Shown: positions 2,637 through 46,482 of the stretch, piece after piece
How positions within the stretch are numbered: the stretch's first letter is position 1
How the letters are laid out: each line of letters opens with the position of its first letter
Source: an uncultured Rickettsiales bacterium
Lineage (GTDB): Bacteria; Pseudomonadota; Alphaproteobacteria; Rickettsiales; SXRF01
Length of the DNA stretch: 47,397 nt
Assembly (NCBI GenBank): GCA_964620765.1
Contig: CAZUKF010000001.1
Location: 1 to 47,397, forward strand
Direction of reading: 5' to 3'
The notes under the pieces: model-generated
The model's input: the letters and a program-made list of their open reading frames with translations, nothing else
What the model was told of the DNA's origin: nothing
Database searches by the model: none
Made by a program: the position numbers and the translations under genes

Positions 2637-3428
2637 TTAGAGGTAATACACGTAGTTCCGGCGGCAGGCGCGGTAGATGGAATAGCCTGCTGCCACGGCG
2701 AATCCCGCCAGCACCAGCAGCTTCAGCGTATCGCCCATGCTGGGCAGGGCATGCTCATAGGCCAGCATCTGCACCGGGTGGATCATGATGTAGAACGGGT
2801 TCCACTGCATGATTGCCTGCATCGCCCCCGGCAGCACCGTGATGGGGTAGAGCACCGGCGTGAACCATACCAGCACGTTCATGCTCACCTGGATGGCCTC
2901 GCCGATATCGCGCACATACGGCGCGAGGAAAGCAATCGCAATGGCCGCGGACATGACAATCACCAGCACCGGGATAAGGTAAAGCGGGATCAGCAGCACG
3001 TACGGGTGAAAGCCGACGAAGAACGCCGCCACCACCGTGTACATCACGGTAAAGGAAACAAGATAGGTGTAGGTGTGCTTCAGCACGTCCGCCACCGGGA
3101 AAATGGTGGAGGAAAGCATGCAGCGCTTGAGCGTTTCCGCCTGCGTAAGGATGGAGCCGGAAGAGCCGACGAGCGAGGTGGCGATGAACGTCCACAGCGG
3201 CAGCGAAGACACGATGAAGAGGATATAATCTTCCTGCGGAAAGCGCATGATCAGCGGCATGACCACGGAATAGACAACTATCATGGTAATGGGCTGGATC
3301 AGCGTCCACAATATGCCGAGGAAGGAATTGCGGTATTGCTTGGAAAGCTGGTTTTTGGCAATCAGCAGCGCCGTGCGCCAGTAATACTGATCCTGCAGGC
3401 GGCGGAACTGTGCGACCGGGCTAAGCAT
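2637..3428 (-). CDS. wzm: ABC-2 type polysaccharide/O-antigen export permease
   Basis: 263 aa, multi-TM. N-terminal IAKNQLSKQYRNSFLGILWTLIQPITMIVVY is the typical ABC-2 permease signature. An 8-nt overlap with the upstream ATPase gene. Confidence 0.88.
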   Translation of the reverse strand: MLSPVAQFRRLQDQYYWRTALLIAKNQLSKQYRNSFLGILWTLIQPITMIVVYSVVMPLIMRFPQEDYILFIVSSLPLWTFIATSLVGSSGSILTQAETLKRCMLSSTIFPVADVLKHTYTYLVSFTVMYTVVAAFFVGFHPYVLLIPLYLIPVLVIVMSAAIAIAFLAPYVRDIGEAIQVSMNVLVWFTPVLYPITVLPGAMQAIMQWNPFYIMIHPVQMLAYEHALPSMGDTLKLLVLAGFAVAAGYSIYRACRRNYVYYL

Positions 3429-4170
3429 ATTCCAGCTCCGGCAGGTTGAGAATATCCTTGCGGTACTGGTTCATGATGTCCCTGGCGCTGCCCTCGTTGA
3501 TGATGAGCCCGCCATGCATAAGGATAAAGCGGTTGCACATGTCCATGATCTCGTGGTGGCCGTGGCTGACCATGAGCGTGATGGAGGCGCCGTCTACCTT
3601 TTCCAGCAGCATGCGGCGGGATTTTTCCACGAAACCGGCGTCGCCGGCGGCAAAAATTTCATCCAGCAGCAGGATGTCCGGGTTCTGGAAAATGGCGGAG
3701 GAGAAAGCCAAACGCGCCATCATGCCGGAGGAGTAATTTTTAAACGGCGTGTCGATCTTGTCGCCCAGCTCGGAAAAATCGATGATGCGCTGTTCCACTT
3801 CGCGCGAATATTCATGCAGCTTGCCGCGGTAGGCGTAGGTCAGGCGCACATTGCCGCGGCCGGTGACCTCGCCTTCAAACCCCGCGCCCATCTCGATCAG
3901 CGGCACCACCGCCCCGTGCACAACGCGCGAGCCGGCGTGGATGGGGTAGTTGCCGGAAATCACCTTCAGAAGCGAGGATTTGCCGCTGCCGTTGGCACCG
4001 AGTATAGCCACGCGGTCTCCCGGTTTGGCGCTGAAGCTGACACCGTTGAGGATCGGCACGCGGACGGGGCGGATGGATTTCTTGCGCAGTATCCACTGGC
4101 GCAGGCTGGACGCACGCGCATGCGTGTCCACGCCACGAACCTCCACATCTTTCAGATCAATAAGCGCCAA
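3421..4170 (-). CDS. wzt: Polysaccharide/O-antigen export ABC transporter ATP-binding protein (short form, no C-terminal carbohydrate-binding domain)
   Basis: Walker A GANGSGKSS, signature YSSGMMARL, Walker B ILLLDEIFAAGD. The only in-frame start is TTG at 4168-4170. 249 aa. Confidence 0.88.
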   Translation of the reverse strand: MALIDLKDVEVRGVDTHARASSLRQWILRKKSIRPVRVPILNGVSFSAKPGDRVAILGANGSGKSSLLKVISGNYPIHAGSRVVHGAVVPLIEMGAGFEGEVTGRGNVRLTYAYRGKLHEYSREVEQRIIDFSELGDKIDTPFKNYSSGMMARLAFSSAIFQNPDILLLDEIFAAGDAGFVEKSRRMLLEKVDGASITLMVSHGHHEIMDMCNRFILMHGGLIINEGSARDIMNQYRKDILNLPELEYA

Positions 4171-4192
4171 GCTGTATACCGGTACGGTTCTT

Positions 4193-5320
4193 TTAGACCG
4201 TTGTGAGCCGCTTCATCGCGGCGGTTTTTTTGAAATCAATCACTTCGGAAATTTTTTTTTGCGCCTTTTCCGCTTCCATCTCCTTGAGGTGGTAGTAGTC
4301 GCGGCGTGACAGCGAGGTGCGCGAGTAGGCGTTGTGGTCGAAGAAGACGATGCTGGAGCCGGCGTTCTCAAATTCAAACGGCACCCAGAGCAGGTCTGAA
4401 AGCGTCTGCATGATTTTCATGTGGTGCTCGGGCTTGGCGAAGAACAGCATGAAGCCGCCGCCGCCCGCGCCCAGCAGCTTGCCGCCGAGTGCACCGGCGC
4501 CGATGGCGCGGTTGTAAATCTCGTCGATGAACTCCGGCGCCACGCTGGCGGAAAGCGAGCGCTTGATCTGCCAGGATTCGTGCAGCAGCTTGCCGAACTC
4601 GGCGATATCAGAGTTGGTGGTGAGGATTTTCAGCGCGTCGTCCACCATTTCGCGCATTTTCATCAGCTCGGCCTTTTTGTCGCCGCGCGCCTGCGCCTGC
4701 ATCTGATCACGCGCGATGTTGGAGGCCGTGCGGGAAACGCCGGTGAAGAACAGCAGCAGGTGGCTTTGCAGCTCTTCCAGCCGGTGCGGCGGCACAATGA
4801 CCGGCTCCACCTGGAAATCCCCGCTGGGAAGAATGCTGATCTTGTTGAAGCCGCCGTAAGCGGTGGCAATCTGGTCCTGCACGCCGACGTTTTCGCGGAT
4901 TACTTCGCGTTCGATATGCACGGCCTCGCAGGCCAGTTCGCGCTTGTTGGACATGCGCCCCTGCAGCGCGTGCAGCGCGTGCAACAGGCCCACGGTGAAG
5001 GCCGAGCTGGAGCCGAGGCCCGAGCGGGCGGGCAGGTCGCCCGTGTGGTGCACTTCGAGGCCGGTATCCATGCCCATGTATTGCAGTACGGCGCGCACGG
5101 CCGGGTGCACGATCTGGTCATGGTCCATCACCGCCTCGATGCGCGACCACACCACGCGCGTCTTCTCCGGGAAGAAGGGCGGCAGGTGGCGGCAGGTGAG
5201 ATAGCAGTAATGGTTGATGGTGGTGGAGAGCACCGCCCCGCCATGCTCACGGTACCAGGTGTGGTAATCCGTGCCGCCGCCGAAAAAAGAAATGCGGAAG
5301 GGGGTGCGGCTGATGATCAT
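4193..5320 (-). CDS. hddA: GHMP-family sugar kinase, D-glycero-D-manno-heptose 7-phosphate kinase (HddA)-like
   Basis: MIISRTPFRISFFGGGTDY N-terminus and GHMP motif PARSGLGSSSAFTVGLL. ATGA overlap with the upstream gene. Carries a ~35-aa C-terminal extension containing A9 and A7 tracts. Confidence 0.75.
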   Translation of the reverse strand: MIISRTPFRISFFGGGTDYHTWYREHGGAVLSTTINHYCYLTCRHLPPFFPEKTRVVWSRIEAVMDHDQIVHPAVRAVLQYMGMDTGLEVHHTGDLPARSGLGSSSAFTVGLLHALHALQGRMSNKRELACEAVHIEREVIRENVGVQDQIATAYGGFNKISILPSGDFQVEPVIVPPHRLEELQSHLLLFFTGVSRTASNIARDQMQAQARGDKKAELMKMREMVDDALKILTTNSDIAEFGKLLHESWQIKRSLSASVAPEFIDEIYNRAIGAGALGGKLLGAGGGGFMLFFAKPEHHMKIMQTLSDLLWVPFEFENAGSSIVFFDHNAYSRTSLSRRDYYHLKEMEAEKAQKKISEVIDFKKTAAMKRLTTV

Positions 5321-6249
5321 GCGTTGGCCCGCATGCCGGTTGAATCCGAAAAATGATGCTGGTACATGCGGTTGAGGCCGTCTTCAAGGGTTACTTTCGG
5401 GCGCCATCCTAATGCAAAAAGCCGGGCAGAATCCAGCACTTTCCGGGGGGCGCCGTCGGGCTTGGTGGTGTCCTGCGTGATTTTGCCTTTATAGCCAACC
5501 ACTTCGGCAATTTTCTGGCCCAGATCGCGGATGGAAATCTCCTGCATGGTCCCCACGTTGATGAGCTCCGCGCTTTCCTGCCGTTCCATCAGGAAAATCA
5601 GCGCATCGGCAAGGTCATCGGCATAGATGAACTCGCGCAAGGGGCTGCCGGTGCCCCAGGTCACCACCTCGGACGCATTCTGCAGTTTTGCCTCGTGAAA
5701 GCGCAGCATCAGCGCCGGGATGACGTGCGAGGCCGCGGGATCAAAATTATCGCCGATGCCGTAGGCGTTGGTCGGCATCGGCACCACCACCTTCATACCA
5801 TATTCCTTCGCGTAGGCCTGCGCCATGACGATGCCGTTTATCTTGGCCGCCGCGTAGGCAATATTCGTCGGTTCAATCGGCCCGTTTAAAAATTCGCTCT
5901 CCTTCACCGGCTGCGGCGCCATTTTCGGGTAGGTGCAGGCCGAGCCGGGAAATAACAGCTTTTGCACACCGTGTTTGCGCGCCGCCTCCATCACGTTGAT
6001 CTGCATGGCGGTGTTATCATGCACGAACTGGCCGGGATAGGCGTTATTGGCGTGGATGCCGCCTACCCGTGCTGCCAGGTGATAGACAGAAGTGGGCTTG
6101 TATTTCGCAAAATAGGCCGCTACCGCCGCCGCATCGCGCAGCTCCAGCTCCGCATGGGTCGGCGTAAGCGCCCCCGGAAGCAGCCGCGCCAGCGCCGAAC
6201 CGACAAGGCCGGAAGCGCCGGTGATAAGGGTTTTTTCTTGAGTTTTCAT
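5317..6249 (-). CDS. GDP-L-fucose synthase family 3,5-epimerase/4-reductase (Fcl/ColC type)
   Basis: Start chosen at ATG 6247-6249 (MKTQEKTLITGASGLVGSAL). LLFPGSACTYPKMAPQPVKESEFLNGPIEPTNIAYAAAK matches the Fcl core. The 144-aa upstream extension of ORF 5317-6681 is discarded. Confidence 0.8.
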   Translation of the reverse strand: MKTQEKTLITGASGLVGSALARLLPGALTPTHAELELRDAAAVAAYFAKYKPTSVYHLAARVGGIHANNAYPGQFVHDNTAMQINVMEAARKHGVQKLLFPGSACTYPKMAPQPVKESEFLNGPIEPTNIAYAAAKINGIVMAQAYAKEYGMKVVVPMPTNAYGIGDNFDPAASHVIPALMLRFHEAKLQNASEVVTWGTGSPLREFIYADDLADALIFLMERQESAELINVGTMQEISIRDLGQKIAEVVGYKGKITQDTTKPDGAPRKVLDSARLFALGWRPKVTLEDGLNRMYQHHFSDSTGMRANA

Positions 6250-6265: not shown

Positions 6266-7243
6266 ATGCCGCTGATGACCGCCACTCTGCCCATGCCGCC
6301 TGAAAATGCAAGCCCTTCTGCGCTTACCGTCACCGCGCTGGACGCGGTGCAGGATGCCGCCCGGCTGGGGCTTTCCCTGCGTGAAGACAACCTGCTCAAC
6401 GCGGTGAATAAAAGCAGGGATGCGAATGACTGGTTCACCGAGGCAGACGGCGGGAACCAGGACCTGCTGCATGACCGCCTGCCCGCAGAAATGCCTGACG
6501 GCACGCCCATTGCCTTCGAGGGCGAGGAAAAAAAAGGCCGCAAGCTCCGCCCCGCCATGAGCCAGTTTTCATACCGCTGGATTATCGATCCCATCGACGG
6601 CACCAAGCCCTTCAAGAACGGCGGCCATGAATGGGCCGTCTCCGCCGCGCTGCAGAAACGCCGTTCGCCCAGCGAGCGCATTATCTTTGGCGATAAATGG
6701 GAAACCGTGACGGGCGTGCTTTACTGCTCCGCGCCGGGTGACAGCGCCGACAACATGAAAGGCACGCTCTACTGGGCTGAAAAAGACAAAGACGGCGCTT
6801 ACGCCATTGACTGCGCCACCGGCGAGCAGCGAAGGCTTGGACGGCCGGCAACACTTGGGACAACGCTGGAATGCAATGTCGCTGCCGATCCGGCCTTGCC
6901 CAACCCGGAAAAGTACAATCCCGTAAGCGACGCCTTCGCGCAGATGCTGCGCGAAGGCTTTAGCCGCCACGCACTTACTCCCACCTATGCCCGCAGTATC
7001 GTGCATACCGCCATACAGGCACTGGAAGGGCAGAAACATGCCACGCTGTTCGAGATCGCCGCACATGACTGGGACATCGCGGCGCTTAAACTGATTGCAG
7101 AGAAAAGCGGTGTATTTTCCCATATCGAACCGCTGGGTAACGGGCTCTATTCCACCCGCGTTACCTGGGACGGGGAGTTGTTCCGCCGTTCCAACCTCGC
7201 GGCAGCACAAACCGTTTGCGAAGGCCATGCCGCCCGGCTATAA
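6266..7243 (+). CDS. Inositol monophosphatase-family sugar phosphatase
   Basis: Motifs WIIDPIDGTKPF and HDWDIAALKLIAEKSG. The ATG at 6275 has better SD spacing (AAGGA 6262-6266) than the ATG at 6266. Only 16 bp separate it from the divergent fcl-like start. Confidence 0.8.
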   Translation: MPLMTATLPMPPENASPSALTVTALDAVQDAARLGLSLREDNLLNAVNKSRDANDWFTEADGGNQDLLHDRLPAEMPDGTPIAFEGEEKKGRKLRPAMSQFSYRWIIDPIDGTKPFKNGGHEWAVSAALQKRRSPSERIIFGDKWETVTGVLYCSAPGDSADNMKGTLYWAEKDKDGAYAIDCATGEQRRLGRPATLGTTLECNVAADPALPNPEKYNPVSDAFAQMLREGFSRHALTPTYARSIVHTAIQALEGQKHATLFEIAAHDWDIAALKLIAEKSGVFSHIEPLGNGLYSTRVTWDGELFRRSNLAAAQTVCEGHAARL

Positions 7244-7257
7244 AGTGCCCGAAACCC

Positions 7258-8223
7258 ATGACTCAGCACGACATACACACGGTTGAGCGCCTCTATAAAT
7301 CCATGCTGCTGATCCGCCGCGTGGAGGAATATATCTGCGAGGTTTATCACACCGACGCCATCAAGAGCCCCGTGCATCTTTCCATCGGGCAGGAATCGGT
7401 GGCAGCCGGGTTGTGCGACCCGCTGGCGCCGGATGATGTTGTTTCCAATACCTATCGCTGCCATGCCACCTACATCGCCAAGGGTGGAGACGTGAAGCAG
7501 ATGATGGCCGAGCTTTACGGCAAATCCGGCGGCTGCGCCGCGGGCAAGGCCGGTTCCATGCACCTCGTTGATATGCCGCACGGCGTGATGGGCGCCTCGG
7601 CCGTGGTGGGCACCACCATCCCGGTGGCCATGGGCTACGCGCAGGCCATGAAGTGGGACGCGAAGAAGCTCGGCAAGCAGCGCGTGGTGATGGCCATCTG
7701 CGGCGACGGCGCCACGGAAGAAGGCTGCTTCGCCGAATCGCTCAATTTTGCCGCCCTGAAAAAACTCCCCATCCTCTTCGTGGTGGAGAATAACGGCTTT
7801 GCCATTCACACCCCCATTCACCGTCGCCAGCCGAACTGGAAAATCCGCGAGCGCGTGGAAACCTACGACATTCCCACGCAGTTCGTGGCAGACGGCGATG
7901 TGTTCAGCATCCGCGAAGCCACACAGAAGGCGATTGATGCCATCCGCAAAGGTGCCGGCCCGCATTTCATCGAATGCACCACCTACCGCTGGATGGAGCA
8001 CGTGGGCCCGACGGATGATCACGACCACGGCCCTTACCGCGACCTGAAGGAATACGCGAAGTGGAAAGAAAATGACCAAGTGGCGCGCCTTGGCAAAATG
8101 CTGGCTGATAAAAAAGCAAAGGCCGATGCCGAGGTTGAGGCCGAACTGAAAGCCGCCATCGCCTTTGCGGAAAAGAGCCCCTATCCCGCGGCTGAAGAAT
8201 TGTTGAGACGCGTCTATGCTTAA
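7258..8223 (+). CDS. ThDP-dependent 2-oxoacid dehydrogenase E1 component, alpha subunit family
   Basis: ThDP-binding motif GDGATEEGCFAESLNFAALKKLPILFVVENNGFAI. Start taken at ATG 7258 (MTQHD), after the upstream stop. Confidence 0.85.
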   Translation: MTQHDIHTVERLYKSMLLIRRVEEYICEVYHTDAIKSPVHLSIGQESVAAGLCDPLAPDDVVSNTYRCHATYIAKGGDVKQMMAELYGKSGGCAAGKAGSMHLVDMPHGVMGASAVVGTTIPVAMGYAQAMKWDAKKLGKQRVVMAICGDGATEEGCFAESLNFAALKKLPILFVVENNGFAIHTPIHRRQPNWKIRERVETYDIPTQFVADGDVFSIREATQKAIDAIRKGAGPHFIECTTYRWMEHVGPTDDHDHGPYRDLKEYAKWKENDQVARLGKMLADKKAKADAEVEAELKAAIAFAEKSPYPAAEELLRRVYA

Positions 8224-9310
8224 AGCCGCCGTGAAAGAACATGTGCCGGAAGCGGAAACCAAGCGGCTGATCCGCTTTGTGGACGCGATCGCCGAGGCCT
8301 GCGCGCAGGAAATGGAGCGCGACGAGCGCGTGTTCGTGTTCGGGCTGGACGTGGACGACCACAAATCCATCCAGGGTTCCACCGCCGGGCTGGTGGAGAA
8401 GTTCGGCCCCGAGCGCTGCTTCGGCACACCGCTGTCGGAAGACGCGATGACCGGCATGGCCATCGGCGCTGCCATGGCGGGCTATCGGCCGGTGCACGTG
8501 CACATCCGCATGGATTTCATGATGCTGGCGATGAACCAGCTGGTCAACATGGCCGCCAAATCGCACTACATGTATAACGGGCAGGTGAAGATCCCGCTGG
8601 TGGTGCGCACGATGATCGGCCGCAGCTGGGGCCAGGGCGCGCAGCATTCACAGGCGCTGCATTCCATGTTCATGCATGTGCCGGGCCTGAAAGTGGTGGC
8701 GCCCAGCAACGCGCATGACGCCAAGGGCGCGCTGATTGCCGCGATACGCGACGACAACCCCGTTATTTTCATGGAGCACCGCCTGCTCTGCAACATGCAG
8801 TCTTACGTGGCGGAAGAAGCGTTTGCCACCGAGGTGGGCAAGGGCCGCGTGATGCATGAAGGCAAAGATGTGACGATTGTGGGCATCTCGCACATGGTGA
8901 TCGAGGCATTGCGCGCCAGCCATTACCTCGAGAAGGCGGGCATCTCCGCCGAGGTGATTGACCCCATCTGGCTGCAGCCGCTGGACATGGAACTCATCCT
9001 CGCCTCGGTTAAAAAAACCGGGCGCCTGCTGGTGGTGGACAACGGCTGGCTGAACTGCGGCAGCGCCGGTGAAATCATCACCCGCGTGCTGGAGCATGCG
9101 CAAACCGAAGGCTGGCCCGTACCGCGCATGCAGCGCATGGGCTTTGCGCCCACGCCCTGCCCTACTACCAAACCGCTGGAAAATCTTTTCTACCCCAACG
9201 GCAAGACCATTGCCGAAGCGGCGCACAAGCTGATTGACCCGAAGGGCAGGATTGATTTGCCCGCTGATCACGAGATCAAAGAAGTCGACGAGTTCAAAGG
9301 ACCGTTTTAA
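8216..9310 (+). CDS. ThDP-dependent 2-oxoacid dehydrogenase E1 component, beta subunit family
   Basis: Transketolase-like pyrimidine-binding and C-terminal domains (FGLDVDD..., GTPLSEDAMTGMAIGAAMAGYRP, DPIWLQPLD). An 8-nt overlap with the alpha subunit gene. Confidence 0.85.
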   Translation: MLKAAVKEHVPEAETKRLIRFVDAIAEACAQEMERDERVFVFGLDVDDHKSIQGSTAGLVEKFGPERCFGTPLSEDAMTGMAIGAAMAGYRPVHVHIRMDFMMLAMNQLVNMAAKSHYMYNGQVKIPLVVRTMIGRSWGQGAQHSQALHSMFMHVPGLKVVAPSNAHDAKGALIAAIRDDNPVIFMEHRLLCNMQSYVAEEAFATEVGKGRVMHEGKDVTIVGISHMVIEALRASHYLEKAGISAEVIDPIWLQPLDMELILASVKKTGRLLVVDNGWLNCGSAGEIITRVLEHAQTEGWPVPRMQRMGFAPTPCPTTKPLENLFYPNGKTIAEAAHKLIDPKGRIDLPADHEIKEVDEFKGPF

Positions 9311-9682
9311 ATGAATACCAGCACGCACTCTCTGTTCTACTGGCTCGGGTTGATGCTGGTAGTCGTGGTGATGCACAGCACCTCGCAGATGCTCTATAAA
9401 AGCGGCGTGCACAATGTGCGCTTCTCCGACCCCATCAACACGCTGCTGCTGAATGGGCCGGTGTTTTTCGGCTACGTTGTTTCCTTTGCCGCGTCGCTGC
9501 TTTACCTGCATGTCATCCAGCACGTGCCGCTGACCACCGCTTTCCCCACCACGGTGCTGATCCAGGTGCTTGTCATCCTGGGCGCGCATTTCCTGTTCAA
9601 GGAAGCCATTACCGTCAACCACCTCATCGGCTTCGGGCTGATTTTCGGCGGGCTGTACTTCATCTGGAAGCCGGCGGCGTGA
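9311..9682 (+). CDS. Small 4-TM EamA/SMR-like membrane protein (ArnE/ArnF-like half transporter)
   Basis: 123 aa with four hydrophobic segments. The ATG immediately follows the E1 beta stop. The C-terminal GLIFGGLYFIW is typical of DMT/SMR half units. Confidence 0.6.
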   Translation: MNTSTHSLFYWLGLMLVVVVMHSTSQMLYKSGVHNVRFSDPINTLLLNGPVFFGYVVSFAASLLYLHVIQHVPLTTAFPTTVLIQVLVILGAHFLFKEAITVNHLIGFGLIFGGLYFIWKPAA

Positions 9683-21096: not shown

Positions 21097-21109
21097 GGGA
21101 GAAAGCACC

Positions 21110-27189: not shown

Positions 27190-27203
27190 CTAAGGAGAAC
27201 ACC

Positions 27204-30825: not shown

Positions 30826-30851
30826 GCGCTTTCCTGTTTAAAGTGCAAAGA

Positions 30852-36595: not shown

Positions 36596-36684
36596 AAAGC
36601 TCCTGCATCTCATTCGTTAACGAATGGGAGGACCATAGAGACCACAGCAGCCAAAAGCAAGAAGCGGGAGAGCGGGCGCGCGTG

Positions 36685-38812: not shown

Positions 38813-39736
38813 ATGGAAAAATCGCCGCTTATCAGCCTGATTACCGTTGTAAAGAACGGCGCGGCCACCATCGAAAAGGCGCTCGCCTCGGTCAGGACTC
38901 AGACTTTTCGTGATTTTGAATATATCGTGCTTGATGGCATCTCTACCGATGGCACGCCCGCGCTGGTGCGCAATTATTCCGATTGCGTGACGTTTTTTCG
39001 CTCAGCGCCGGATAAGGGCGCCAATGACGCCTTCAACCAGGCGCTCGGTCTCACGCGCGGCAGCATCATCGGCATCCTCTCGGCCGATGACTGGCTGGAA
39101 AACGGCGCATTTGAAACCATCGCCCGGCTTTACCGTGAAAAACCCGAGGCAGGTATTTTCTCCTTCGGGCTGCAGGAATACGAGGCGGATGCGGGGGGGA
39201 ACTTCAGCCCGAAACGCTATTTCTGTGACCCGGACACCCCGCACTTCACCCTGCAGGACGCCATGTACTGCCAGGGGCTGGGGCGCTTTTATTCCGCCAA
39301 TCTCGTGCGGCGCGCCGGGATGTTCGAGATAGACCGTTACCCCAAGCTGTGTGACCGCGAATGGTATATGCGCCTCGGGCAGATGGAGCCCATGAAGGCG
39401 CGGGACCCCAAGCCGCTTTACGCGTTCCGCTGCCACCCCGGCTCCGTCTCGGCCAGTGCCGATAACGCGGCCACCCTCACCTCGCTGGAGCAGATGCGCG
39501 ACATCGCGCTGGATTACCTCGCCCACCCGGAGCTCACGCCGGTGCAGTACACGGACCTGAAGAGCTGGTATTGCTTCGTCATGGTGCGCCTGCTCGCCTA
39601 CCGCCTGCGCACCAATGACCATGTCAGCTTCCTTGCCGGTACGGCGGAGGCCATCGTGACGCAACCCATCGGTATGCTGCGGCGGCTCATCAATTACCGC
39701 ATGCCGCAGGCCTACCGCCCCATGACGCCGCCATGA
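38813..39736 (+). CDS. Family 2 glycosyltransferase
   Basis: LISLITVVKNGAATIEKALASVRTQTFRDFEYIVLDGISTDGT and SADD. Confidence 0.85.
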   Translation: MEKSPLISLITVVKNGAATIEKALASVRTQTFRDFEYIVLDGISTDGTPALVRNYSDCVTFFRSAPDKGANDAFNQALGLTRGSIIGILSADDWLENGAFETIARLYREKPEAGIFSFGLQEYEADAGGNFSPKRYFCDPDTPHFTLQDAMYCQGLGRFYSANLVRRAGMFEIDRYPKLCDREWYMRLGQMEPMKARDPKPLYAFRCHPGSVSASADNAATLTSLEQMRDIALDYLAHPELTPVQYTDLKSWYCFVMVRLLAYRLRTNDHVSFLAGTAEAIVTQPIGMLRRLINYRMPQAYRPMTPP

Positions 39737-40626
39737 TCATCGCGGTGACGGTTACCTTCAACCCGGATGACGGCTTCAAGACACGGCTGGAAAGCTACGC
39801 GGGCCAGGTGGAACATGTGTTCATCATCGACAACAGTATTGATGAAGCGCGCGCCGCTTTTGTGCAATCACTCGCGGGCGGCAACGTGGAAGTGTTTGCC
39901 AATGCCAACGTGAACGGGCTGGCGGGCGCGCAAAACACCGGCATCGCCAAGGCGCTCGCGCGCGGCGCGGAGTGGATCGCGCTGTTTGACGATGACAGCG
40001 CCGCATCAGAGGGCATGTTCGCGCACATGCTGAAAGTGTGGCAGCAACACCCGAAGAAAGACCGCACGGGCATCGTGGTGCCGGTGGTGTTTGACGGCCG
40101 CACCGGCCATGAGCACCGTTTCATCACCTGGGTGGGACCGCTCGTCTGGCGGCGGCGCATGGATGACCGCAACTTCATGGAAAACATCGTCACCGCCAAT
40201 GCCTCGGGCATGCTGATCCACACGGATCTCGTGCGCGACTGCGGCATGATGCGCGAGGATTATTTCATCGACTGGGTGGACGTGGAATATTGTTTGCGCG
40301 CGCGGGCACGCGGCTGGCGCATCCTGGCGGTGGGCAACACCTGCCTCGATCACACGCTGGGCGACAAGATGAAACACGCGCTGTTCGGCGCCACCTTCAT
40401 CGCCAGCCACCACGCCGCGTGGCGGCGCTACACCATGAGCCGCAACCGCGTAGACGTGTGGAAACATTACTGGCTGCGCTTCCCCGCTTACGTGATTTAC
40501 GACAAGCTGGTGACATTGTACGAGACGTTCAAGATCATCTGCTTTGAAAGAGAAAAACGCACCAAACTGCGCAACATGCTACGCGGTTTCAAAGATGGTT
40601 TATTGGGAAGATTTCCGTTGCCTTAA
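39733..40626 (+). CDS. Family 2 glycosyltransferase (rhamnosyltransferase-like)
   Basis: IIAVTVTFNPD, IIDNS and LFDDDS. ATGA overlap with the upstream GT2. Confidence 0.8.
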   Translation: MIIAVTVTFNPDDGFKTRLESYAGQVEHVFIIDNSIDEARAAFVQSLAGGNVEVFANANVNGLAGAQNTGIAKALARGAEWIALFDDDSAASEGMFAHMLKVWQQHPKKDRTGIVVPVVFDGRTGHEHRFITWVGPLVWRRRMDDRNFMENIVTANASGMLIHTDLVRDCGMMREDYFIDWVDVEYCLRARARGWRILAVGNTCLDHTLGDKMKHALFGATFIASHHAAWRRYTMSRNRVDVWKHYWLRFPAYVIYDKLVTLYETFKIICFEREKRTKLRNMLRGFKDGLLGRFPLP

Positions 40627-41148: not shown

Positions 41149-42438
41149 TTACGCCGCCGCCTTCAGTCCCTGCGTTTTCATGAATTCATCAATAGAATCA
41201 ATGACATATTTGCAGGCCGCCGCGTCCACGGAATGGTGGCAGCCCACCGCGAAGCCGCGCTTCATGATGGTATCGCAGTTGCCCAAATCCCCCGCCACGC
41301 GGTGCGGGAACATCTTCAGCGCGGGGTGGCGGGCCATGTTCCCGGCAATGATGGGCCGTGTTTCGATGCCCTTGCCGTTGAGATAAGAGGTGATGTCCTT
41401 CACCGCGAAGGGCGCGTTTTCCTTCAGAACAATGCCGAAGCCGAACCAGCTGGAATAGCCGCCCTTCTGCTCATCCTGGAAGCGGAAATACGCGCTGTGT
41501 TTCTCCAGGCCCGCGCGGTACGTGGCCTGCGCGGCGCGGCGCTTTTCCACCAGCGCCTTCAGTTTGGGCAGCTGCTTTTCGCCCATCACCGCCTGCACTT
41601 CCGTGGGGCGCAGATTGTAGCCGATATTGATGAAAATAAAGCGCGGGTCGATCTCCGGGTACTCGGCACGGTACTTGTCTTTCTCATCCGCCTCGCGGCT
41701 CCAACCGTGCGCGCGCAGCACGCGCATCAGCTCCACCAGCTCGAAATTATCAGAGAAGGTCAGCCCGCCCTCGAAGGTGGTGATGTGGTGCGAGTAATAA
41801 AGGCTCATGGTGCCCACGTCGCCGAACGTGCCGACGGACTTGCCCTTGAAATTCGCGCCCATGCTTTCGCAGGTATCTTCAATCACGCGCAGGCTGTGCT
41901 TCTTTGCCAACACCATGATGGCATCCATGTCGCACGGATTGCCGTAGACATGCACCAGCATGATGGCACGCGTCTTGGGCGTGATGGCGGCTTCCAGCTT
42001 CGCCATGTCGAAATTGTAGGTGCCAAGGTCGCAATCCACGAATACCGGCGTCAGCTGGTGCTGGATCAACGGCCACACGGTGGTGGCCCAGGAAAGCGCG
42101 GGCACGATCACCTCGTCGCCGGGGCGCATCTGGTTGGGCCATGCCGGGTTGGCGAGCGCCGCAACAGCCAACAGGTTGGCGCTGGAGCCGGAATTGCTCA
42201 TGAGCGCATATTTACTACCGAAATGCCGGGCGGAATTTTCTTCAAACCCGCGCACCCGCTTGCCCATGGTGACCATGGTAGTGAGCGACTGCTCGATCAT
42301 CGCGTTGATTTCTTCCGCCCCGAAAGTCGGCTCGTGCAGGCGCACGACGGGATTTTTGGGATCGAAACCGAAATTGAATTGTTCCTTGCAATAGGCTTCC
42401 ACGCCAGAACGTATCGCCGCGATGTGCTTGTCGGTCAT
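41149..42438 (-). CDS. colD: PLP/PMP-dependent GDP-4-keto-6-deoxy-sugar 3-dehydratase (ColD type)
   Basis: Colinear with E. coli ColD: FGSKYALMSNSGSSANLL, VIVPALSWATTVWPL, EDTCESMGA, and SLYYSHHITTFEGG with His replacing the usual PLP Lys. Also LRAHGWSRE, SSWFGFGIVL and GIETRPIIAGNM. Confidence 0.8.
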   Translation of the reverse strand: MTDKHIAAIRSGVEAYCKEQFNFGFDPKNPVVRLHEPTFGAEEINAMIEQSLTTMVTMGKRVRGFEENSARHFGSKYALMSNSGSSANLLAVAALANPAWPNQMRPGDEVIVPALSWATTVWPLIQHQLTPVFVDCDLGTYNFDMAKLEAAITPKTRAIMLVHVYGNPCDMDAIMVLAKKHSLRVIEDTCESMGANFKGKSVGTFGDVGTMSLYYSHHITTFEGGLTFSDNFELVELMRVLRAHGWSREADEKDKYRAEYPEIDPRFIFINIGYNLRPTEVQAVMGEKQLPKLKALVEKRRAAQATYRAGLEKHSAYFRFQDEQKGGYSSWFGFGIVLKENAPFAVKDITSYLNGKGIETRPIIAGNMARHPALKMFPHRVAGDLGNCDTIMKRGFAVGCHHSVDAAACKYVIDSIDEFMKTQGLKAAA

Positions 42439-42452: not shown

Positions 42453-42950
42453 TTATTCCAAGATCACGCGCTGGCGTGAAACTGACTTGTTGCCGGATAC
42501 CTTGTCCAGCACGATAGCTTCGATGATGTAGGGCCCCTTGGGCGAACGCCGCTCCAGGCTGAACTCATACGCGGGCAGCGCCATCACGAAAACTTTTGGG
42601 TCCAGCTGCGCGCCGGTGGCCACGGCGTAGCTTTCCTGCTCCACGATCACCTGTTCCTCCGGGTCATACACCCTGTAGCTCACGCCCCCGTCGTAATTGC
42701 CGTCCTGATCCGCCGCGAGGCCGGAAATCAGCGTGCCTACATGCAGCCTGTGGCGCTGGCGCATGGTCTGCTTGTTGCGGATGATGGGGGTTTTGTCCTG
42801 CTTCGCCGCCAGCGCCTGCAGCTTGCCCGCGTTGTCGGTGACGACAACCTGCGCGCGCAAGCCCCCGCGCGAACTGGGTTTTACAACTTCCGCAGAAGCA
42901 GTGAAAGCCAGCAGGCTCAGGGCAATGGCTATCGCGATTTTCTTCATCAT
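42453..42950 (-). CDS. Hypothetical secreted protein
   Basis: Start at the ATG pair 42945-42950 (MMKKIAIAIALSLLAFTASA signal peptide). The 59-aa upstream extension of the ORF is rejected. Confidence 0.55.
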   Translation of the reverse strand: MMKKIAIAIALSLLAFTASAEVVKPSSRGGLRAQVVVTDNAGKLQALAAKQDKTPIIRNKQTMRQRHRLHVGTLISGLAADQDGNYDGGVSYRVYDPEEQVIVEQESYAVATGAQLDPKVFVMALPAYEFSLERRSPKGPYIIEAIVLDKVSGNKSVSRQRVILE

Positions 42951-43116
42951 AAGCTCTATTTCTAACGCTTCCGGCCGGCGCCAACAAGTCCTAAAACGCT
43001 TGTAAAGCAGCCTGAGCCTGCTAATTTCTCTGTACGATAGCATTTGGTCCCGGCTTAGTTTGTCGGGAATGCTGCGGCAGGGTTTTGCCCTGCGTCCGTT
43101 CCACAGGAGTTCAGTC

Positions 43117-43431
43117 ATGAACCCCATGTTGAATGTCCTTGCCCTGTCAGGTTGGGTGTTGTTCCCGATGTTGTTATGGGAAATCCCATATTCCGCCCGG
43201 TGGTTGTGGCGTAACTACGTGGTGGCGCTGTTCCTGCTCATCCCCTATTCGTGGTTGGCATGGAGCATCTTCACCATTCCGTTCGTGAACGGCGGGTTTG
43301 TCCAGCACGCGGCGTGGACTGTCCGGATTTTCGGCTGGGCTGCCATCGGCATTGGCTCGCTCATGGGGATTGTGCAACTGCTCACGCAGTGTCTCCCCAA
43401 AAGTTGGCGGGAGCGTTCGCACAACTTCTGA
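43117..43431 (+). CDS. Hypothetical small membrane protein (about 3 TM)
   Basis: ATG 43117, 7 nt after AGGAG (43105-43109). The ORF track begins at TTG 43060. Trp/Leu-rich hydrophobic segments. Confidence 0.45.
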   Translation: MNPMLNVLALSGWVLFPMLLWEIPYSARWLWRNYVVALFLLIPYSWLAWSIFTIPFVNGGFVQHAAWTVRIFGWAAIGIGSLMGIVQLLTQCLPKSWRERSHNF

Positions 43432-43456: not shown

Positions 43457-43486
43457 GCCTCGCCAACCGGCGGGGCGTTTTGTTTT
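43457..43486. terminator. Bidirectional intrinsic terminator
   Basis: GCCTCGCC-aacc-GGCGGGGC (8 bp including one G-U pair) followed by GTTTTGTTTT. The opposite strand has TGTTTCGTTTGCTTTTT. Lies between convergent ORFs. Confidence 0.6.
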
Positions 43487-44499
43487 CAGCGGGTGAGGAA
43501 CTGGCTGCCGTCGCTCACGCGCCCGCGCCAGTAATCCAGCAGATCCTGCATGGTTTTTTCGAAGGTAATCACCGGCTTCCAGCCCGTGTGCTTCTCGAAC
43601 TTGCTGGTATCGGGCACCTGCAAATCGGCATCAATCGGGCGCAGGCGGTCCGGGTCCACCTCCACTTTTATCTCGCCCTTTTTCTTTGAGAGCGAGATGA
43701 GGTGATCCAGCATCGCGCGGATGGTGCAGGTATACTGCCCGCCGATATTGTAATATTCGCCGCCTTGCGGCTTCACCGTCACCAGCACGTGGTAGGCGCG
43801 CACGGCGTCGCGCACATCGGCGAAAGTGCGCAGTGAATCCAAATTCCCCACCTTGATCACCGGCGCAATCTGCCCGGCCTCAATCATGGCGATCTGCTTG
43901 GCGAAGGTGGATTCGGCGAATACGTCGCCGCGCCGCGGCCCGGTGTGAGTGAACATGCGTGTCGTCATCACCTTCATGTCATACGCCTCGGCGTAGAACC
44001 GCCCCACCAGGTCCGTGCCCACCTTGGAAATCGCGTACGGGCTGGCCGGGTGGAACGTGCATTCCTCGTTGATGGGCAGTTTTTCCTTCGGTACACGCCC
44101 GAACACTTCCGAGCTCGCGCAGACATGGATCACCGCGTCTTTCTTGTACTGGCGCAAAGCTTCCAGCACGCGGCTGGTGCCCTGGATGTTGGTTTCATAC
44201 GTATCCAGCGGCGCCGAAAAACTGGTCTTGGGGTAACTCTGCGCGGCGAGGTGAAACACGTAGTCCGGCTGCACGTTACGCACGGCCTCGTTGATCGAAT
44301 CCGAGTCACGCAAGTCACCATACACCAGGTGCACGCGGTCTTTTTTATTGATGCGTGGCAGGTGGTGAGAAATGTTATCGAGCGGGCTGCGCCAGCGGAT
44401 CAGCCCGTGAATCTCCCAATCCGTCTTCTCCAGCAGGTAGTCTGCCAGGTGCGAGCCGACCATGCCGGTAATGCCGGTGATGAATGCGCGTTTTGTCAT
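43486..44499 (-). CDS. gmd: GDP-sugar 4,6-dehydratase (Gmd-like extended SDR)
   Basis: AFITGITGMVGSHLADYLL, and catalytic SPYAISKVGTD. 4-nt overlap with the upstream hddC-like gene. Confidence 0.7.
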   Translation of the reverse strand: MTKRAFITGITGMVGSHLADYLLEKTDWEIHGLIRWRSPLDNISHHLPRINKKDRVHLVYGDLRDSDSINEAVRNVQPDYVFHLAAQSYPKTSFSAPLDTYETNIQGTSRVLEALRQYKKDAVIHVCASSEVFGRVPKEKLPINEECTFHPASPYAISKVGTDLVGRFYAEAYDMKVMTTRMFTHTGPRRGDVFAESTFAKQIAMIEAGQIAPVIKVGNLDSLRTFADVRDAVRAYHVLVTVKPQGGEYYNIGGQYTCTIRAMLDHLISLSKKKGEIKVEVDPDRLRPIDADLQVPDTSKFEKHTGWKPVITFEKTMQDLLDYWRGRVSDGSQFLTR

Positions 44500-45206
44500 G
44501 CCGCCTCAATACGTCCCTTCAGTTCGCGTTGCGCTCTCGCGTAATCCTCCGGCACGCCGATGTCAATGAAATACCCGCCCGTTTCCCATGCATGCGGCTT
44601 GACGCGCGCCAGGTGCGGCCGTTGGAAATCAGACTCGAAGGAGAATGCCACCGACAGGTCAAACCCCTTGAAAATCTCCGGGCTTACCACGTAAACGCCG
44701 GTGCTGATCCAACCCTTGTGTGCCCGCCCGGGGTAGACAAATTCCGTGATGCGGTGGTTGGCATCGAACACCGCCTCGCCGTAACGGCTGCAATCGGGCA
44801 TTTCGCGGAGTGCAATGGTAAGCGTGCTGCCGCTTTTTTCATGCGCGGCCACCATCTCTGCCACGTCGATCTCCACGAAGGAATCCCCGTTACTAACAAA
44901 AACCGGGCCCACAGGCTTCAGCACTGAGAGCGCGAATTTTACCGCGCCGCCCGTGCCGAGCGGCTTTTCTTCCTCGGCATAGGTAATGCTCAAGCCCTCA
45001 AAGCCGCTGCCGAAATAATCGCGGATGGTAGCGCGCAAATGGTGCGTGGAAAGCAACACGGAGGTAATCCCCTGCCCCCTCAGGTAGCGCAGGTAATGCG
45101 CGAGGAACGGTTCGCCGTTGATCGGCGCCATCGGCTTCGGGATCTCTTCCCCGATTGCTCCCTTGAGCCTAGTTCCGAACCCGCCCGCAAGAACAATGGC
45201 CTGCAT
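44496..45206 (-). CDS. hddC: Sugar-1-phosphate nucleotidyltransferase, D-glycero-alpha-D-manno-heptose-1-phosphate guanylyltransferase (HddC)-like
   Basis: [14 protein letters not shown]...PKPMAPING, at the short ~236-aa size typical of HddC. Same operon as gmhA. Confidence 0.7.
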   Translation of the reverse strand: MQAIVLAGGFGTRLKGAIGEEIPKPMAPINGEPFLAHYLRYLRGQGITSVLLSTHHLRATIRDYFGSGFEGLSITYAEEEKPLGTGGAVKFALSVLKPVGPVFVSNGDSFVEIDVAEMVAAHEKSGSTLTIALREMPDCSRYGEAVFDANHRITEFVYPGRAHKGWISTGVYVVSPEIFKGFDLSVAFSFESDFQRPHLARVKPHAWETGGYFIDIGVPEDYARAQRELKGRIEAA

Positions 45207-45877
45207 CAGTGCTTCACTTTCTCTAATTCCTTGCGCGCGGCTTCAAAATCGCGCTGGAAGGCTTCGTTCTGCAGCAGCGCGCCCAGCGTCAGCCGCGCCA
45301 GTGCCCGCCCGCCCTGGATATCCACCGGGTAATGCATGCCGGTGAGCACACGGTGAAAAGCGATATTCTCTGCCTTCGCCCGCAACGTTTCGCGCCGGGC
45401 AGGCATCAGCTGCCCCAGTACTTCCGCCCACACCACGCCGTAATAGGTATGCCCGCTGGGATAAGCAGGGTTGGTGTGCGGAGGGATCAGCGTGCGCACC
45501 TGCTCCGGGGCCGCCTTGTAGGGCCGCCGCGTGTTCCAGAATTTTTTCACCTTGTCATTGATGGCGCGCATATCTTCATGCAGCCGGTCCAGCAGGGTAA
45601 ACAACGCGGGGTTGCGTTCCCGCGTCACCTCCGGCTCCAGCACCTTCGTCAGCAGTTCGGGCTTCATGTGGTATTCCACCTCCGCTGCCTTTATGTCTGC
45701 TGCGGTGGCTTTTTTCTGCAGTTCCACAATCTCCTGCACATCGTGCTGCCATTCCGGGGAATTTTCGTCCCAGGGCTTGTAGAGCATGGAAGGCGGGATC
45801 ACGTCTTCGTCGAGATAATTCCCAGCGCATGCTGGGAAAGCCAGCAGGCACGCGGCGATTACGGCGAGTGTCCTCAC
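45206..45877 (-). CDS. Class A (PAP2 superfamily) acid phosphatase with a signal peptide
   Basis: [19 protein letters not shown] leader. PAP2 motifs [16 protein letters not shown] and [12 protein letters not shown]. Confidence 0.8.
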
Positions 45878-46482
45878 GCAGTGGCCGATTTGTTATTAAA
45901 CTCCGCCCCGAACAGGCTTTGCTCAATGAGGGCGCAGTAAATATGCCCGAGCATGATATGGCACTCCTGCACTTTCGGCGTTTCGGTGGAGGGCATTTTT
46001 AAAATGATATCGCACAGGCTCGCCATTTTGCCGCCGGTCTTGCCGGTCTTGCCGATGATGGCGATGCCCTTCGCCCGTGCAGCTTCGATGGCCTTAAGCA
46101 CATTAGGTGAATTGCCGGAAGTGGAGATGGCGATCAGCACGTCGCCCTTCTGCCCCACCGCCTCGATCTGCCGGGAGAACACCGTTTCGAACCCGTAATC
46201 ATTGCCGATAGCTGTGAGCGCTGAGGTATCCACCGTCAGCGCAATGGCCGCCAGACCCGGCCGGTTGAAGTTCAGGCGTGACACCAACTCCGCCGCCAGA
46301 TGCTGCGAATCCGCAGCACTACCGCCATTGCCGCAAAAGAGAATCTTGTTGCCGTTTTTCAGCGCTCTTTCGCAGATGTCGGCCACGCGCTCCACGTTGG
46401 CGAGCAGCTCGGCATCGGCCAGCACGGCGTCGATAACTGCGCGGGTTTCCTGAATTTCTTTCACGATCATGCCGCCAACCAT
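45874..46482 (-). CDS. gmhA: Sedoheptulose-7-phosphate isomerase (phosphoheptose isomerase, SIS domain)
   Basis: [21 protein letters not shown]...[25 protein letters not shown]...[15 protein letters not shown]. Confidence 0.9.

Follow-up and report, generated by a model that had tools for sequence, protein, structure and literature searches.

We analyzed a 47,397-nt stretch of DNA from an uncultured Rickettsiales bacterium (assembly GCA_964620765.1, contig CAZUKF010000001.1; this whole stretch is called the window below) and found that positions 2637-46482 hold a glycan locus of a known kind, the ABC-transporter-dependent kind, with a heptose-derived deoxysugar core and with later steps and transferases that come from uncharacterized, widely recurring families. 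GC3-guided gene calling placed 45 close-packed genes in this span, which runs from wzm to gmhA. On balance we favor one explanation for them: a single compact modular locus for the assembly and Wzm/Wzt-mediated export of a lipid-linked glycan of the cell surface, in the simplest case an O-antigen or a capsule-like polymer. A first-pass annotation of the same DNA had described a Wzm/Wzt-linked glycan locus in which tailoring enzymes far outnumber transferases, and this description was borne out; the homopolymer of a single sugar that it allowed for is not implied by the genes, which code for at least three nucleotide-sugar pathways. Gene families were assigned by Pfam and NCBIfam scans of the called open reading frames (ORFs), and the cutoffs given are the model cutoffs. 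For comparison, metagenomes were scanned with a profile of the new GT-A-fold glycosyltransferase (GT) family described below, which gave 54 loci from freshwater, marine and soil sources; neighbor counts refer to the 36 loci that measure 8 kb or more, and individual related loci are cited by our own numbers (prefix L). Coordinates are those of the window, with the strand as + or −.

The locus codes for a complete-looking entry into GDP-heptose followed by a heptose dehydratase and a ColD-type enzyme, in line with the earlier suggestion of a higher-carbon sugar. GmhA, the sedoheptulose-7-phosphate isomerase (45874..46482, −), scored 214.9 bits against TIGR00441 (cutoff 209.45). The HddA-like GHMP kinase (4193..5320, −; GHMP_kinases_N and _C), a heptose-7-phosphate 1-kinase of the α-anomer route, has NCBIfam HddA as its best model at 153 bits (cutoff 600), and the HddC-like heptose-1-phosphate guanylyltransferase (44496..45206, −) has HddC as its best NCBIfam match at 196 bits (cutoff 300). 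Two phosphatases are also coded, a PAP2-family membrane protein (45206..45877, −; PAP2 40.4 bits) and an IMPase/CysQ-family protein (6266..7243, +; Pfam Inositol_P 58 bits, with weak CysQ and HisN matches) whose gene keeps its position in L009 and L066. The GDP-D-glycero-D-manno-heptose 4,6-dehydratase (43486..44499, −) scored 361 bits against the Campylobacter jejuni enzyme (PDB 7us5) vs. at most 156 bits against GDP-mannose dehydratases (Gmd). The sugar 3-dehydratase (41149..42438, −), dependent on pyridoxal or pyridoxamine phosphate (PLP/PMP), has ColD as its best PDB match (2gms, 281 bits) and E1 dehydrase next to it (3bcx, 263 bits), and scored 367 bits against the RfbH model (cutoff 423); its segment 'YYSHHITTFEGG' aligned to 'FYSHHIATMEGG' of ColD, where 'SHH' holds the catalytic His188 of ColD, replacing the Schiff-base lysine. 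Close similarity at both steps shows the logic of heptose 4,6-dehydration followed by 3-deoxygenation. GmhA, HddA, a phosphatase and HddC (with the two dehydratases, module A below) would thus deliver GDP-D-glycero-α-D-manno-heptose, which the heptose 4,6-dehydratase and then the ColD-type enzyme would convert to the predicted product GDP-3,6-dideoxy-4-keto-heptose.

There is a direct precedent for these two steps in the C. jejuni HS:5 pathway, where a 4,6-dehydratase and then a PLP-dependent C3-dehydratase act on GDP-heptose (PMC10440746; Ghosh, Xiang & Raushel 2023). The HS:5/HS:11 systems share with the window the starting point, GDP-D-glycero-α-D-manno-heptose, as well as the order of the two enzymes (PMC10440746); unlike them, the window has no recognized C. 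jejuni-type separate C5-epimerase, has Wzm/Wzt in place of KpsMT, and surrounds the enzyme pair with a thiamine diphosphate (ThDP)-dependent E1αβ pair, PhyH and Rieske oxygenases and the new GT family. The colitose pathway (Gmd-ColD-ColC; E. coli O55, Yersinia) is similar in that ColD is the nearest relative of the 3-dehydratase, that an Fcl/ColC-like enzyme is present, and that ColD works without an E3 reductase, of which there is none in the window; it differs in that a heptose, not a mannose derivative, is the predicted substrate here and in that the colitose route has no ThDP enzyme. The Fcl/ColC-like epimerase-reductase (5317..6249, −) scored 391 bits against NCBIfam GDP-L-fucose synthase (cutoff 500; Pfam was run on the trimmed protein). 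Its ORF runs to 6681, and the Met at 6249 is the probable start, as the fucose synthase match begins at residue 148 of the long ORF; homologs in L009 and L033 are 74% identical. Two further Fcl-like extended short-chain dehydrogenase/reductases (SDRs) are coded: SDR2 (35588..36613, −; Epimerase 170.9 bits), the most conserved core enzyme, which reaches only about 115 bits against any solved enzyme, and SDR3 (37770..38756, −; Fcl/GalE-like), 54-72% identical to homologs in L016, L018, L020, L024, L026 and L067. A FabG-like classical SDR ketoreductase (30121..30825, −; adh_short_C2 194.5 bits) recurs in 8/36 loci at 39-65% identity. The window scans gave no match to a cupin-type C5 epimerase, and the three Fcl-like SDRs could merge epimerase and C4 reductase functions. 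The total of six SDRs in the first-pass annotation (five extended, one classical) is unchanged, as are its three PLP enzymes, all of the DegT family.

What happens to the 4-keto sugar may depend on the E1αβ pair. The α subunit (7216..8223, +; E1_dh 193.9 bits, with the GDG...NN ThDP motif) and the β subunit (8216..9310, +; Transket_pyr and Transketolase_C), the single pair also seen earlier, have the pyruvate dehydrogenase (PDH) E1α/β models as their closest curated relatives, at scores below cutoff; no E2, E3 or lipoyl partner was found in the locus in the Pfam/NCBIfam scans. Contiguous, co-directional E1α-E1β-ColD-heptose dehydratase(-HddA) runs were found in L011, L051 and L054-L064, so that at least four distinct lineages (L011, L051, the L054 group and the L056 group) have E1αβ next to the ColD-like and heptose dehydratase genes. 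In contexts anchored on E1β, units of the form fcl / (IMPase)-E1α-E1β-PhyH4 lie amid the same gene set in L001, L066 and L067, with PhyH4 directly downstream of E1β and 55-62% identity, and in L067 fcl / E1αβ-PhyH4 ... cSDR-SDR2-SDR3 ... ColD (cSDR, the classical SDR) are found inside 11 kb. In actinomycete antibiotic pathways, E1α/β pairs put a pyruvate-derived C2 unit on C4 of NDP-4-keto-deoxysugars, giving paulomycose and eurekanate (PMC4802897), and in lipopolysaccharide (LPS) biosynthesis YerE and ErwE, which are single-chain enzymes of the acetohydroxyacid synthase (AHAS) type, add a C2 branch to CDP-3,6-dideoxy-4-keto-glucose (PMC9306805). By analogy with YerE, Plm8/Plm9 and AviB1/B2, the E1αβ pair would move a pyruvate-derived two-carbon unit onto the C4 ketone and give a nine-carbon branched sugar. 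The SDRs would then reduce the branch, the PhyH and domain-permuted Rieske enzymes would hydroxylate it, and the Fcl-like enzyme, methyltransferases and sulfotransferase would complete the sugar, with methyl, sulfate, formyl and acyl or aminoacyl groups being added; this order of steps beyond the 3-dehydratase is one that we infer.

The likeness to yersiniose (YerE/YerF), erwiniose (ErwE), paulomycose (Plm8/Plm9) and eurekanate (AviB1/AviB2) biosynthesis lies in a ThDP gene beside genes for an NDP-3,6-dideoxy-4-keto-sugar, with ketoreductases nearby, and for Plm8/9 and AviB1/B2 also in the catalyst itself, an E1α/β pair without E2/E3 that is coded with the NDP-4-keto-deoxysugar genes. The difference is that the known LPS cases have CDP-hexoses as substrates for single-chain enzymes of the YerE type, and the known E1-pair cases are antibiotic dTDP-sugars; a GDP-heptose as acceptor of C2 branching would be new if real. 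The bradyrhizose cluster was considered as a relative and rejected, since it is an 11-gene operon built on a dTDP-glucose dehydratase. As a lead only, the phase I O-antigen region of Coxiella burnetii also has gmhA and genes for heptose activation at its start, and its products include branched sugars; it may have an E1α/β pair and PhyH genes too, which the literature searched did not confirm. Taken to its full extent, the proposal is that of a widespread undescribed pathway, in which GDP-heptose becomes a C4-acyl-branched, nine-carbon 3,6-dideoxy-heptose through a PDH-like E1αβ pair, is oxidized by PhyH and permuted Rieske enzymes, polymerized by the GT-A family (about 200-360 clusters) and exported by Wzm/Wzt; we put this forward tentatively.

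Several findings count against a branching role of the pair. The Fcl/ColC-like enzyme could use the same 4-keto intermediate without any branching. The E1αβ subfamily nearest to that of the window (65-90% identity) also occurs by itself in L003 and L068, amid housekeeping genes, and the ColD-adjacent E1αβ pairs are merely 41-57% identical to the pair in the window, so that a branching role may not transfer to the latter. These points fit a somewhat unlikely alternative, an unbranched 3,6-dideoxy-heptose of the colitose or HS:5 type that is finished by the Fcl-like enzyme, with E1αβ acting as a 2-oxo-acid decarboxylase or dehydrogenase that gives an acyl or aldehyde substituent, or being a housekeeping neighbor. 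The 391-bit fucose synthase match, the two further Fcl-like SDRs, the unusual conservation of E1β (65-90% identity in >120 clusters) and the single-chain nature of the characterized LPS branching enzymes (PMC9306805) speak for it. The adjacency and common direction of E1αβ with the two dehydratase genes in at least four lineages, the lack of E2, E3 or lipoyl partners nearby, the PhyH gene within the E1αβ operon amid glycan genes, and the actinomycete E1 pairs that do C-branch sugars (PMC4802897) speak against it. The stand-alone pair lies near fliX and rpoN in L003 and near a radical-SAM gene of the LIAS (lipoyl synthase) type and argJ in L068; in L001 (1-8249) it lies beside lpxA-lpxI-lpxB, and the pair is distributed more broadly than the glycan locus.

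Export of the product would rest on Wzm, an ABC-2 type permease (2637..3428, −; Pfam ABC2_membrane 49.9 bits, best NCBIfam match the galactan-export Wzm), and Wzt, its 249-aa ATP-binding subunit (3421..4170, −; Pfam ABC_tran at residues 41-173, best NCBIfam matches the galactan-export Wzt and TagH-like proteins), whose genes overlap by 8 nt. As noted before, Wzt consists of the nucleotide-binding domain only and has no C-terminal carbohydrate-binding domain, which places it, by its domain content, with the O2a or galactan type rather than with the E. coli O9a subclass. It also holds that no called ORF of the window matched the Wzx, Wzy, WaaL or initiating transferase families. The Acyl_transf_3 protein is the sole large polytopic protein among the window genes, and a hidden assembly gene of these kinds would not fit into the tiny gaps between genes. 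WaaL and WecA are usually unlinked in ABC-dependent O-antigen systems, and the missing WecA, WaaL and Wzt carbohydrate-binding domain are normal in many ABC-dependent systems and not unusual per se. The Wzm/Wzt systems of Klebsiella O2a and mycobacterial galactan are alike in having Wzm with a short Wzt, no Wzx/Wzy, and family 2 GTs that include a rhamnosyltransferase- or GlfT1-like candidate adaptor; the window differs from them in its far more numerous and more diverse tailoring enzymes and in its polymerase candidate, a member of an undescribed GT-A family whose C-terminal half is long and helical. It is quite improbable, in our judgment, that the product, rather than being an LPS O-antigen or capsule, is a free glycolipid or a glycan linked to protein (flagellin, pilin or S-layer). 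Such a product would agree with the lack of WaaL, of the Wzt carbohydrate-binding domain and of Kps-type genes in the window, with the presence of an OGT/SPINDLY-type GT41, and with the fact that Wzm/Wzt also carry S-layer glycan precursors and mycobacterial galactan; on the other side, no target protein gene, oligosaccharyltransferase or flagellar gene was found in the window scans, the L001 relatives beside lpxA-lpxI-lpxB are in a lipid A context, and the unlinked state of WaaL and WecA is the usual one for O-antigen systems. What the glycan is finally attached to is inferred.

The transferases were more numerous than first counted: the three GT2 genes and one GT41 were found again, one of the GT2s being of the polyprenyl-phosphate type, and the count was too low by a new GT-A family and two GH130-like proteins. 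The 560-aa protein (16617..18299, −) was modeled with AF2 (pLDDT 85, pTM 0.81), and the top Foldseek matches of the model were all GT-A transferases (TarS, RmlT, TarP, SpsA and the hyaluronan synthase HAS). It had no PDB match in sequence or profile searches, the fold search being the informative one, and 0/35 family members had a Pfam match; D100-E101 at the DXD position is invariant in the 35 members, and the C-terminal half is long and helical. On the strength of the model, we assign this protein to the GT-A transferases, in a family that Pfam does not model, and regard it as a candidate polymerizing transferase. The family comprises 215 clusters at 50% identity (E ≤1e-30) among 1.84 billion representatives, and a search of plasmids with the GT-A domain found nothing. 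Two copies of the family, mostly adjacent in hit order, were found in L026, L029, L032, L033, L038, L039, L041, L042, L050, L057, L062 and L064, and the representative library includes members, up to 1,472 aa long, in which several domains are fused; the double copies and fusions hint at paired or bifunctional polymerases.

GT2a (12355..13077, +; Pfam GT2, AglJ 80 bits, below cutoff) is of the polyprenyl-phosphate sugar synthase type (AglJ or dolichyl-phosphate hexose transferase-like) and was found at 40-68% identity in 9/36 loci, often beside the Rieske gene. GT2b (38813..39736, +; Glycos_transf_2 67.4 bits) recurs in 12/36 loci at about 28-30% identity, and GT2c (39733..40626, +; TIGR01556 177.8 bits vs. 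cutoff 200.6) is a rhamnosyltransferase/GlfT1-like candidate adaptor GT. GT41 (23177..24808, +; Glyco_transf_41 122.7 bits), a SPINDLY/OGT-like catalytic domain with no tetratricopeptide repeat (TPR) array, has SPINDLY as its best PDB match (221 bits, residues 98-538) and co-occurs with the new GT-A family. The two GH130-like β-propeller proteins (paralog 1, 27138..28169, +; paralog 2, 32856..33815, +) are 44% identical to each other and match Pfam Glyco_hydro_130 only weakly; their profile matched GH130 β-1,2-mannoside phosphorylases at E 3.5e-13 (9fj8) and 1.5e-12 (7fip), in an alignment that spans part of the fold. One report describes glycosyltransferase activity with GDP-mannose for certain GH130 enzymes (PMC12814180), and on that account the two paralogs are transferase candidates. 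For assembly, GT2c would act as the adaptor, and the GT-A family protein, GT2b and possibly the GH130-like proteins would lengthen the chain on a lipid carrier, with GT41 also taking part in assembly, the initiation and ligation genes presumably located elsewhere and Wzm/Wzt exporting the product.

A second nucleotide-sugar route starts from UDP-glucuronic acid (UDP-GlcA). SDR1 (20011..21096, +) is a UDP-GlcA decarboxylase of the ArnA C-domain type (UDP-4-keto-pentose/UDP-xylose synthase), with 530.6 bits against NF008872 (cutoff 294) and 463 bits against the ArnA model. The DegT-family sugar aminotransferase 1 (22095..23237, +; DegT 193.6 bits) keeps the PLP lysine in 'SLHGTKPLGIGEGG', and the N-formyltransferase (24805..25749, −; Formyl_trans_N and _C), the one formyltransferase that had been listed, is of the Fmt/ArnA N-domain type, with about 135 bits against ArnA and fmt, below cutoffs. 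Judged by these matches, SDR1, DegT1 and the Fmt-like protein would give an ArnA/ArnB-like route, from UDP-GlcA to a 4-keto-pentose, then transamination, then N-formylation to an N-formylated 4-amino-pentose. The likeness to the Arn (Ara4N) system extends to a polyprenyl-phosphate-type GT2 and an ArnE-like membrane protein, in addition to the ArnA-C type decarboxylase, DegT aminotransferase and Fmt/ArnA-N-like protein; on the other hand, the aminotransferase and formyltransferase of the window are not ArnB/ArnA orthologs by score, and the genes are split among other modules. No family match to ArnT (PMT_2/GT-C) or ArnD (polysaccharide deacetylase) was obtained in the window scans, and therefore this is not an Arn system. 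The small protein with four transmembrane (TM) segments (9311..9682, +; EamA 28.9 bits) is EamA/ArnE-like, with a weak 31 bits against the ArnE model (cutoff 92), and is a candidate subunit of a polyprenyl-phosphate-sugar flippase.

A further set of genes (module B) comprises DegT2, WbqC, the FemAB-like and metallo-β-lactamase (MBL)-fold CmlA-like proteins, GNAT, methyltransferases and the GH130-like proteins, by which an amino sugar would be made and decorated, probably by aminoacylation. The DegT-family aminotransferase 2 (33812..34936, −; DegT 212 bits, lysine kept) adjoins the WbqC-family gene (34924..35580, −; WbqC 136 bits) in the window and in L004, L010 and L014; we found no characterization of WbqC in the searchable literature. 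The two DegT genes have inverted patches of 72-85% nucleotide identity (I1-I3) at 22138-22703 and 34343-34908, which suggests a fairly recent duplication or gene conversion inside the locus. The three acyl or aminoacyl transferase candidates of the first count were all found: a GNAT acetyltransferase (31466..31936, +; Acetyltransf_1 45.5 bits), a weak FemAB-like candidate with an aminoacyl transferase fold (31933..32859, +; FemAB 21.9 bits, below the cutoff of 24), whose orthologs of about 32% identity lie beside the MBL protein in L004, L010 and L012, and the Acyl_transf_3 membrane O-acyltransferase (36685..37770, −; 59 bits).

We then compared gene neighborhoods. In the 36 loci, the neighbors of the GT-A gene were SDR2 (14 loci; 64-82% identity to the window protein), HddA, E1β and ColD-like (13 each), E1α, PhyH1 and GT2b (12 each), Wzt (11; 33-44% identity), the heptose dehydratase (10; 72-75% identity), GT2a and PhyH4 (9 each) and the Rieske protein (6). 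Heptose genes, a ColD-like gene, a stand-alone E1αβ pair, SDRs, PhyH and the new GT-A family, often with Wzt, therefore make up a recurrent core in freshwater, marine and soil sources. L009 is collinear with window positions 4193-19904 at 44-85% identity and lacks 9311-13077, and this segment is therefore an insertion in the window. In L011, from a 4.07-Mb genome, the contiguous E1α-E1β-ColD-heptose dehydratase-HddA run adjoins the GT-A gene, with GT41, the GH130-like gene and the formyltransferase nearby. A GTDB scan with GT41 gave distant relatives only, the best (44%) in an uncultured Coxiellaceae metagenome-assembled genome (MAG), nearest to the GT41/module B block. On this MAG contig (L004), homologs of the MBL, FemAB-like, GH130-like, GT41, WbqC, DegT and GT-A genes are adjacent, a set that is dispersed over 16.6-35.6 kb in the window. 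Module B is contiguous in L004, L010 and L012, and L012 adds E1αβ, PhyH4, the classical SDR and SDR2; L011 and L012 combine genes of both modules A and B. The chance that separate loci are merely juxtaposed here, raised with the first description, met a divided answer: genes dispersed in the window are contiguous elsewhere, which makes the locus coherent, and the modules are separately conserved. The window is thus an elaborated, interleaved mix of recurrent modules, neither a chance juxtaposition nor an indivisible unit.

A number of observations have to be set against a single locus with one heptose-based product. HddA-, HddC-, Fcl- and ColD-like proteins are all below the NCBIfam equivalog cutoffs. 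The Pfam/NCBIfam scans found no GmhB-type (HAD) 7-phosphatase in the window, with IMPase- and PAP2-family phosphatases there instead; the IMPase-family protein could stand in for GmhB, or could be the 3'-phosphoadenosine 5'-phosphate (PAP) phosphatase for the sulfotransferase, and a supply of GmhB from a housekeeping gene is possible. The polyprenyl-phosphate-type GT2 and ArnE-like protein hint that decoration may follow its own route in the periplasm. Module A occurs without B in L054 and module B without A in L010. The nearest solved relative of GT41, SPINDLY, is a protein O-fucosyltransferase, and to our knowledge every biochemically characterized GT41 acts on proteins. Finally, the assembly is from a low-coverage metagenome: the window sequence was matched only in three runs of one freshwater metagenome sample, a search for the exact sequence of a window protein reached no other contig, and the single-run Logan contigs of this sample (0.3-0.8 kb, depth 2-4 on positions 1-20000) are too short to bear on long-range order either way.

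Part of this evidence fits a mosaic of two or three separate glycan systems with several products on one 'glycan island', namely an ABC-exported heptose polymer, an Arn-like formylated 4-amino-pentose placed on lipid A, core or polymer in the periplasm, and protein glycosylation by GT41. The separate conservation of modules (module B alone in L010, the core alone in L054-L064), the score of the ArnA-C-like decarboxylase far above cutoff, the ArnA-N-like formyltransferase, AglJ/dolichyl-phosphate-type GT2a and ArnE-like protein (all only below cutoffs), the kinship of GT41 to SPINDLY and the 13 alternating strand runs in the locus would all be expected from it. We nonetheless regard such a mosaic as unlikely. 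The modules are interleaved, with PhyH4 and the classical SDR between module B genes and SDR2 and SDR3 flanking DegT2-WbqC; depending on the genome, the GT-A family is found beside genes of module A or of module B, and L011 and L012 mix the two. No ArnT-like GT-C, ArnD deformylase or oligosaccharyltransferase was seen in the window scans, GT41 has no TPR array, and GT2a travels with the heptose core and not with the pentose genes. A single modular locus remains our preferred explanation.

The remaining genes are mostly tailoring enzymes. About seven oxygenases had been proposed; the four PhyH-like proteins (three above the Pfam cutoff) and the MBL candidate, which is CmlA-like by profile, were recovered, and there is one Rieske domain protein, not two. 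This Rieske non-heme-iron oxygenase (9679..10581, +; Pfam Rieske at 223-267, AF2 pLDDT 91.7) is domain-permuted: by sequence and AF2 model the order is reversed relative to the canonical one, with the catalytic SRPBCC domain at 1-170 and the Rieske domain at 200-300. The motifs D49-x2-H52-x4-H57 and CPH...CPWH are invariant, Foldseek matched the N-domain to the catalytic domains of GxtA and SxtT, and the family is rare (17 homolog clusters out of 5.8 billion protein clusters). The window codes for no reductase partner. The adjacent 220-aa protein (10821..11483, −; no Pfam match) aligned weakly to the Rieske N-domain in hhalign (E 0.083, motifs collinear), showed no significant BLASTP similarity to the Rieske protein and had no homolog in the 36 related loci; it may be distantly paralogous to the catalytic domain of the oxygenase. 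The PhyH-like Fe(II)/2-oxoglutarate dioxygenases are PhyH1 (14618..15523, −; a weak 19.3 bits vs. cutoff 22), PhyH2 (19110..19904, −; 36 bits), PhyH3 (21005..22117, +; 33.6 bits, within module B in L010 and L012) and PhyH4 (29333..30073, −; 92 bits). The MBL-fold protein (25717..27189, +; Lactamase_B_2 35 bits), a CmlA-like candidate diiron oxygenase, matched by profile the non-heme diiron monooxygenase 8a90 (E 1e-5) and CmlA (E 2e-4) in the PDB, and has homologs of 60-64% identity in L004, L010 and L012.

All five S-adenosylmethionine (SAM) methyltransferases of the earlier count were assigned to families: Methyltransf_11 (11447..12238, −; Pfam), Methyltransf_23 (15520..16620, −; Pfam; 70% identity in L009, 7/36 loci), a TylF-type O-methyltransferase (18320..19153, −; TylF 67.9 bits, 85% identity in L009), an FkbM-type enzyme (28245..29330, −; Methyltransf_21 59 bits, 54-58% identity in L010, L012, L013 and L017) and Methyltransf_25 (30744..31469, +; Pfam; with GNAT in L010, L012 and L028). 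The one sulfotransferase-like protein (522 aa; 13074..14642, +) has a borderline Sulfotransfer_1 score (23.2 bits vs. cutoff 22), shows the PAPS (3'-phosphoadenosine 5'-phosphosulfate)-type motifs 'GKQGAGNT' and 'RSPLDTLLS', and has a 44% identical ortholog in L009. A small protein with a signal-peptide-like segment (42453..43127, −), recognized by inspection of its sequence, had no Pfam/NCBIfam match.

The 45 genes are arranged in the 13 runs with gaps mostly negative or <120 nt, and GC is even along the window (0.57-0.63). No tRNA gene, Rfam family match or long repeat of the kind found at insertion sequence or island ends was detected inside the locus, and the even GC, the close packing and the lack of such marks speak for its integrity. 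The largest gaps are 40627-41148 (522 nt), whose sole ORF (40544-41092, low-complexity) is probably not a gene, and 43128-43485 (358 nt), which overlaps an opposite-strand ORF with three TM segments (43060-43431; no family match). On the left, an unrelated toxin and immunity pair abuts the locus. The polymorphic-toxin-like gene (924-2348, −) has a C-terminal Colicin E5 tRNase domain (45 bits vs. cutoff 25), together with a region weakly like phage Mu F, and its true start is probably at ~1964; downstream of it lies a gene for a 152-aa, likely immunity protein (456-914, −) built from two internal repeats (direct repeat D5). L067 has a fragment of this second protein, 46% identical, at 9664-9885. 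An 84-aa ORF at the contig start (81-335, +; 101 bits) holds only a GreA/GreB C-terminal domain; upstream of it, the window has no in-frame sequence for the N-terminal coiled coil. The right side ends in a truncated FadB-like gene (46485-47396, the window end, −), of which the enoyl-CoA hydratase part is there. It lies upstream of gmhA, on the same strand and at a distance of 2 nt, which leaves the right boundary open; the window end may not be the end of the locus or of its operon, and the FadB-like protein could supply hydroxyacyl groups. Logan contigs from the three runs matched the window up to 2306, 6514, 16211, 18510, 18873 and 19715 and then turned into unlike sequence, four of the breaks being seen in 3/3 runs and those at 18510 and 19715 in two; the break at 2306 is just beyond wzm, beside the toxin cassette. 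Strains or variants co-occurring in the sample may have segments of the locus in common.

Almost nothing is known of the chemistry of the surface glycans that uncultured bacteria of fresh water, sea and soil carry, and these glycans affect phage susceptibility, grazing resistance and carbon export. The locus offers a way, open to test, into a new class of branched, higher-carbon sugars, and it places the rare permuted Rieske oxygenase and the GH130-like proteins in a biosynthetic setting. Its GT family has been overlooked by domain libraries, and GT-poor, "tailoring-only" loci elsewhere may be misread for this reason. If the proposed branching is true, E1-type ThDP carboligation would reach from antibiotic sugars to GDP-heptoses.

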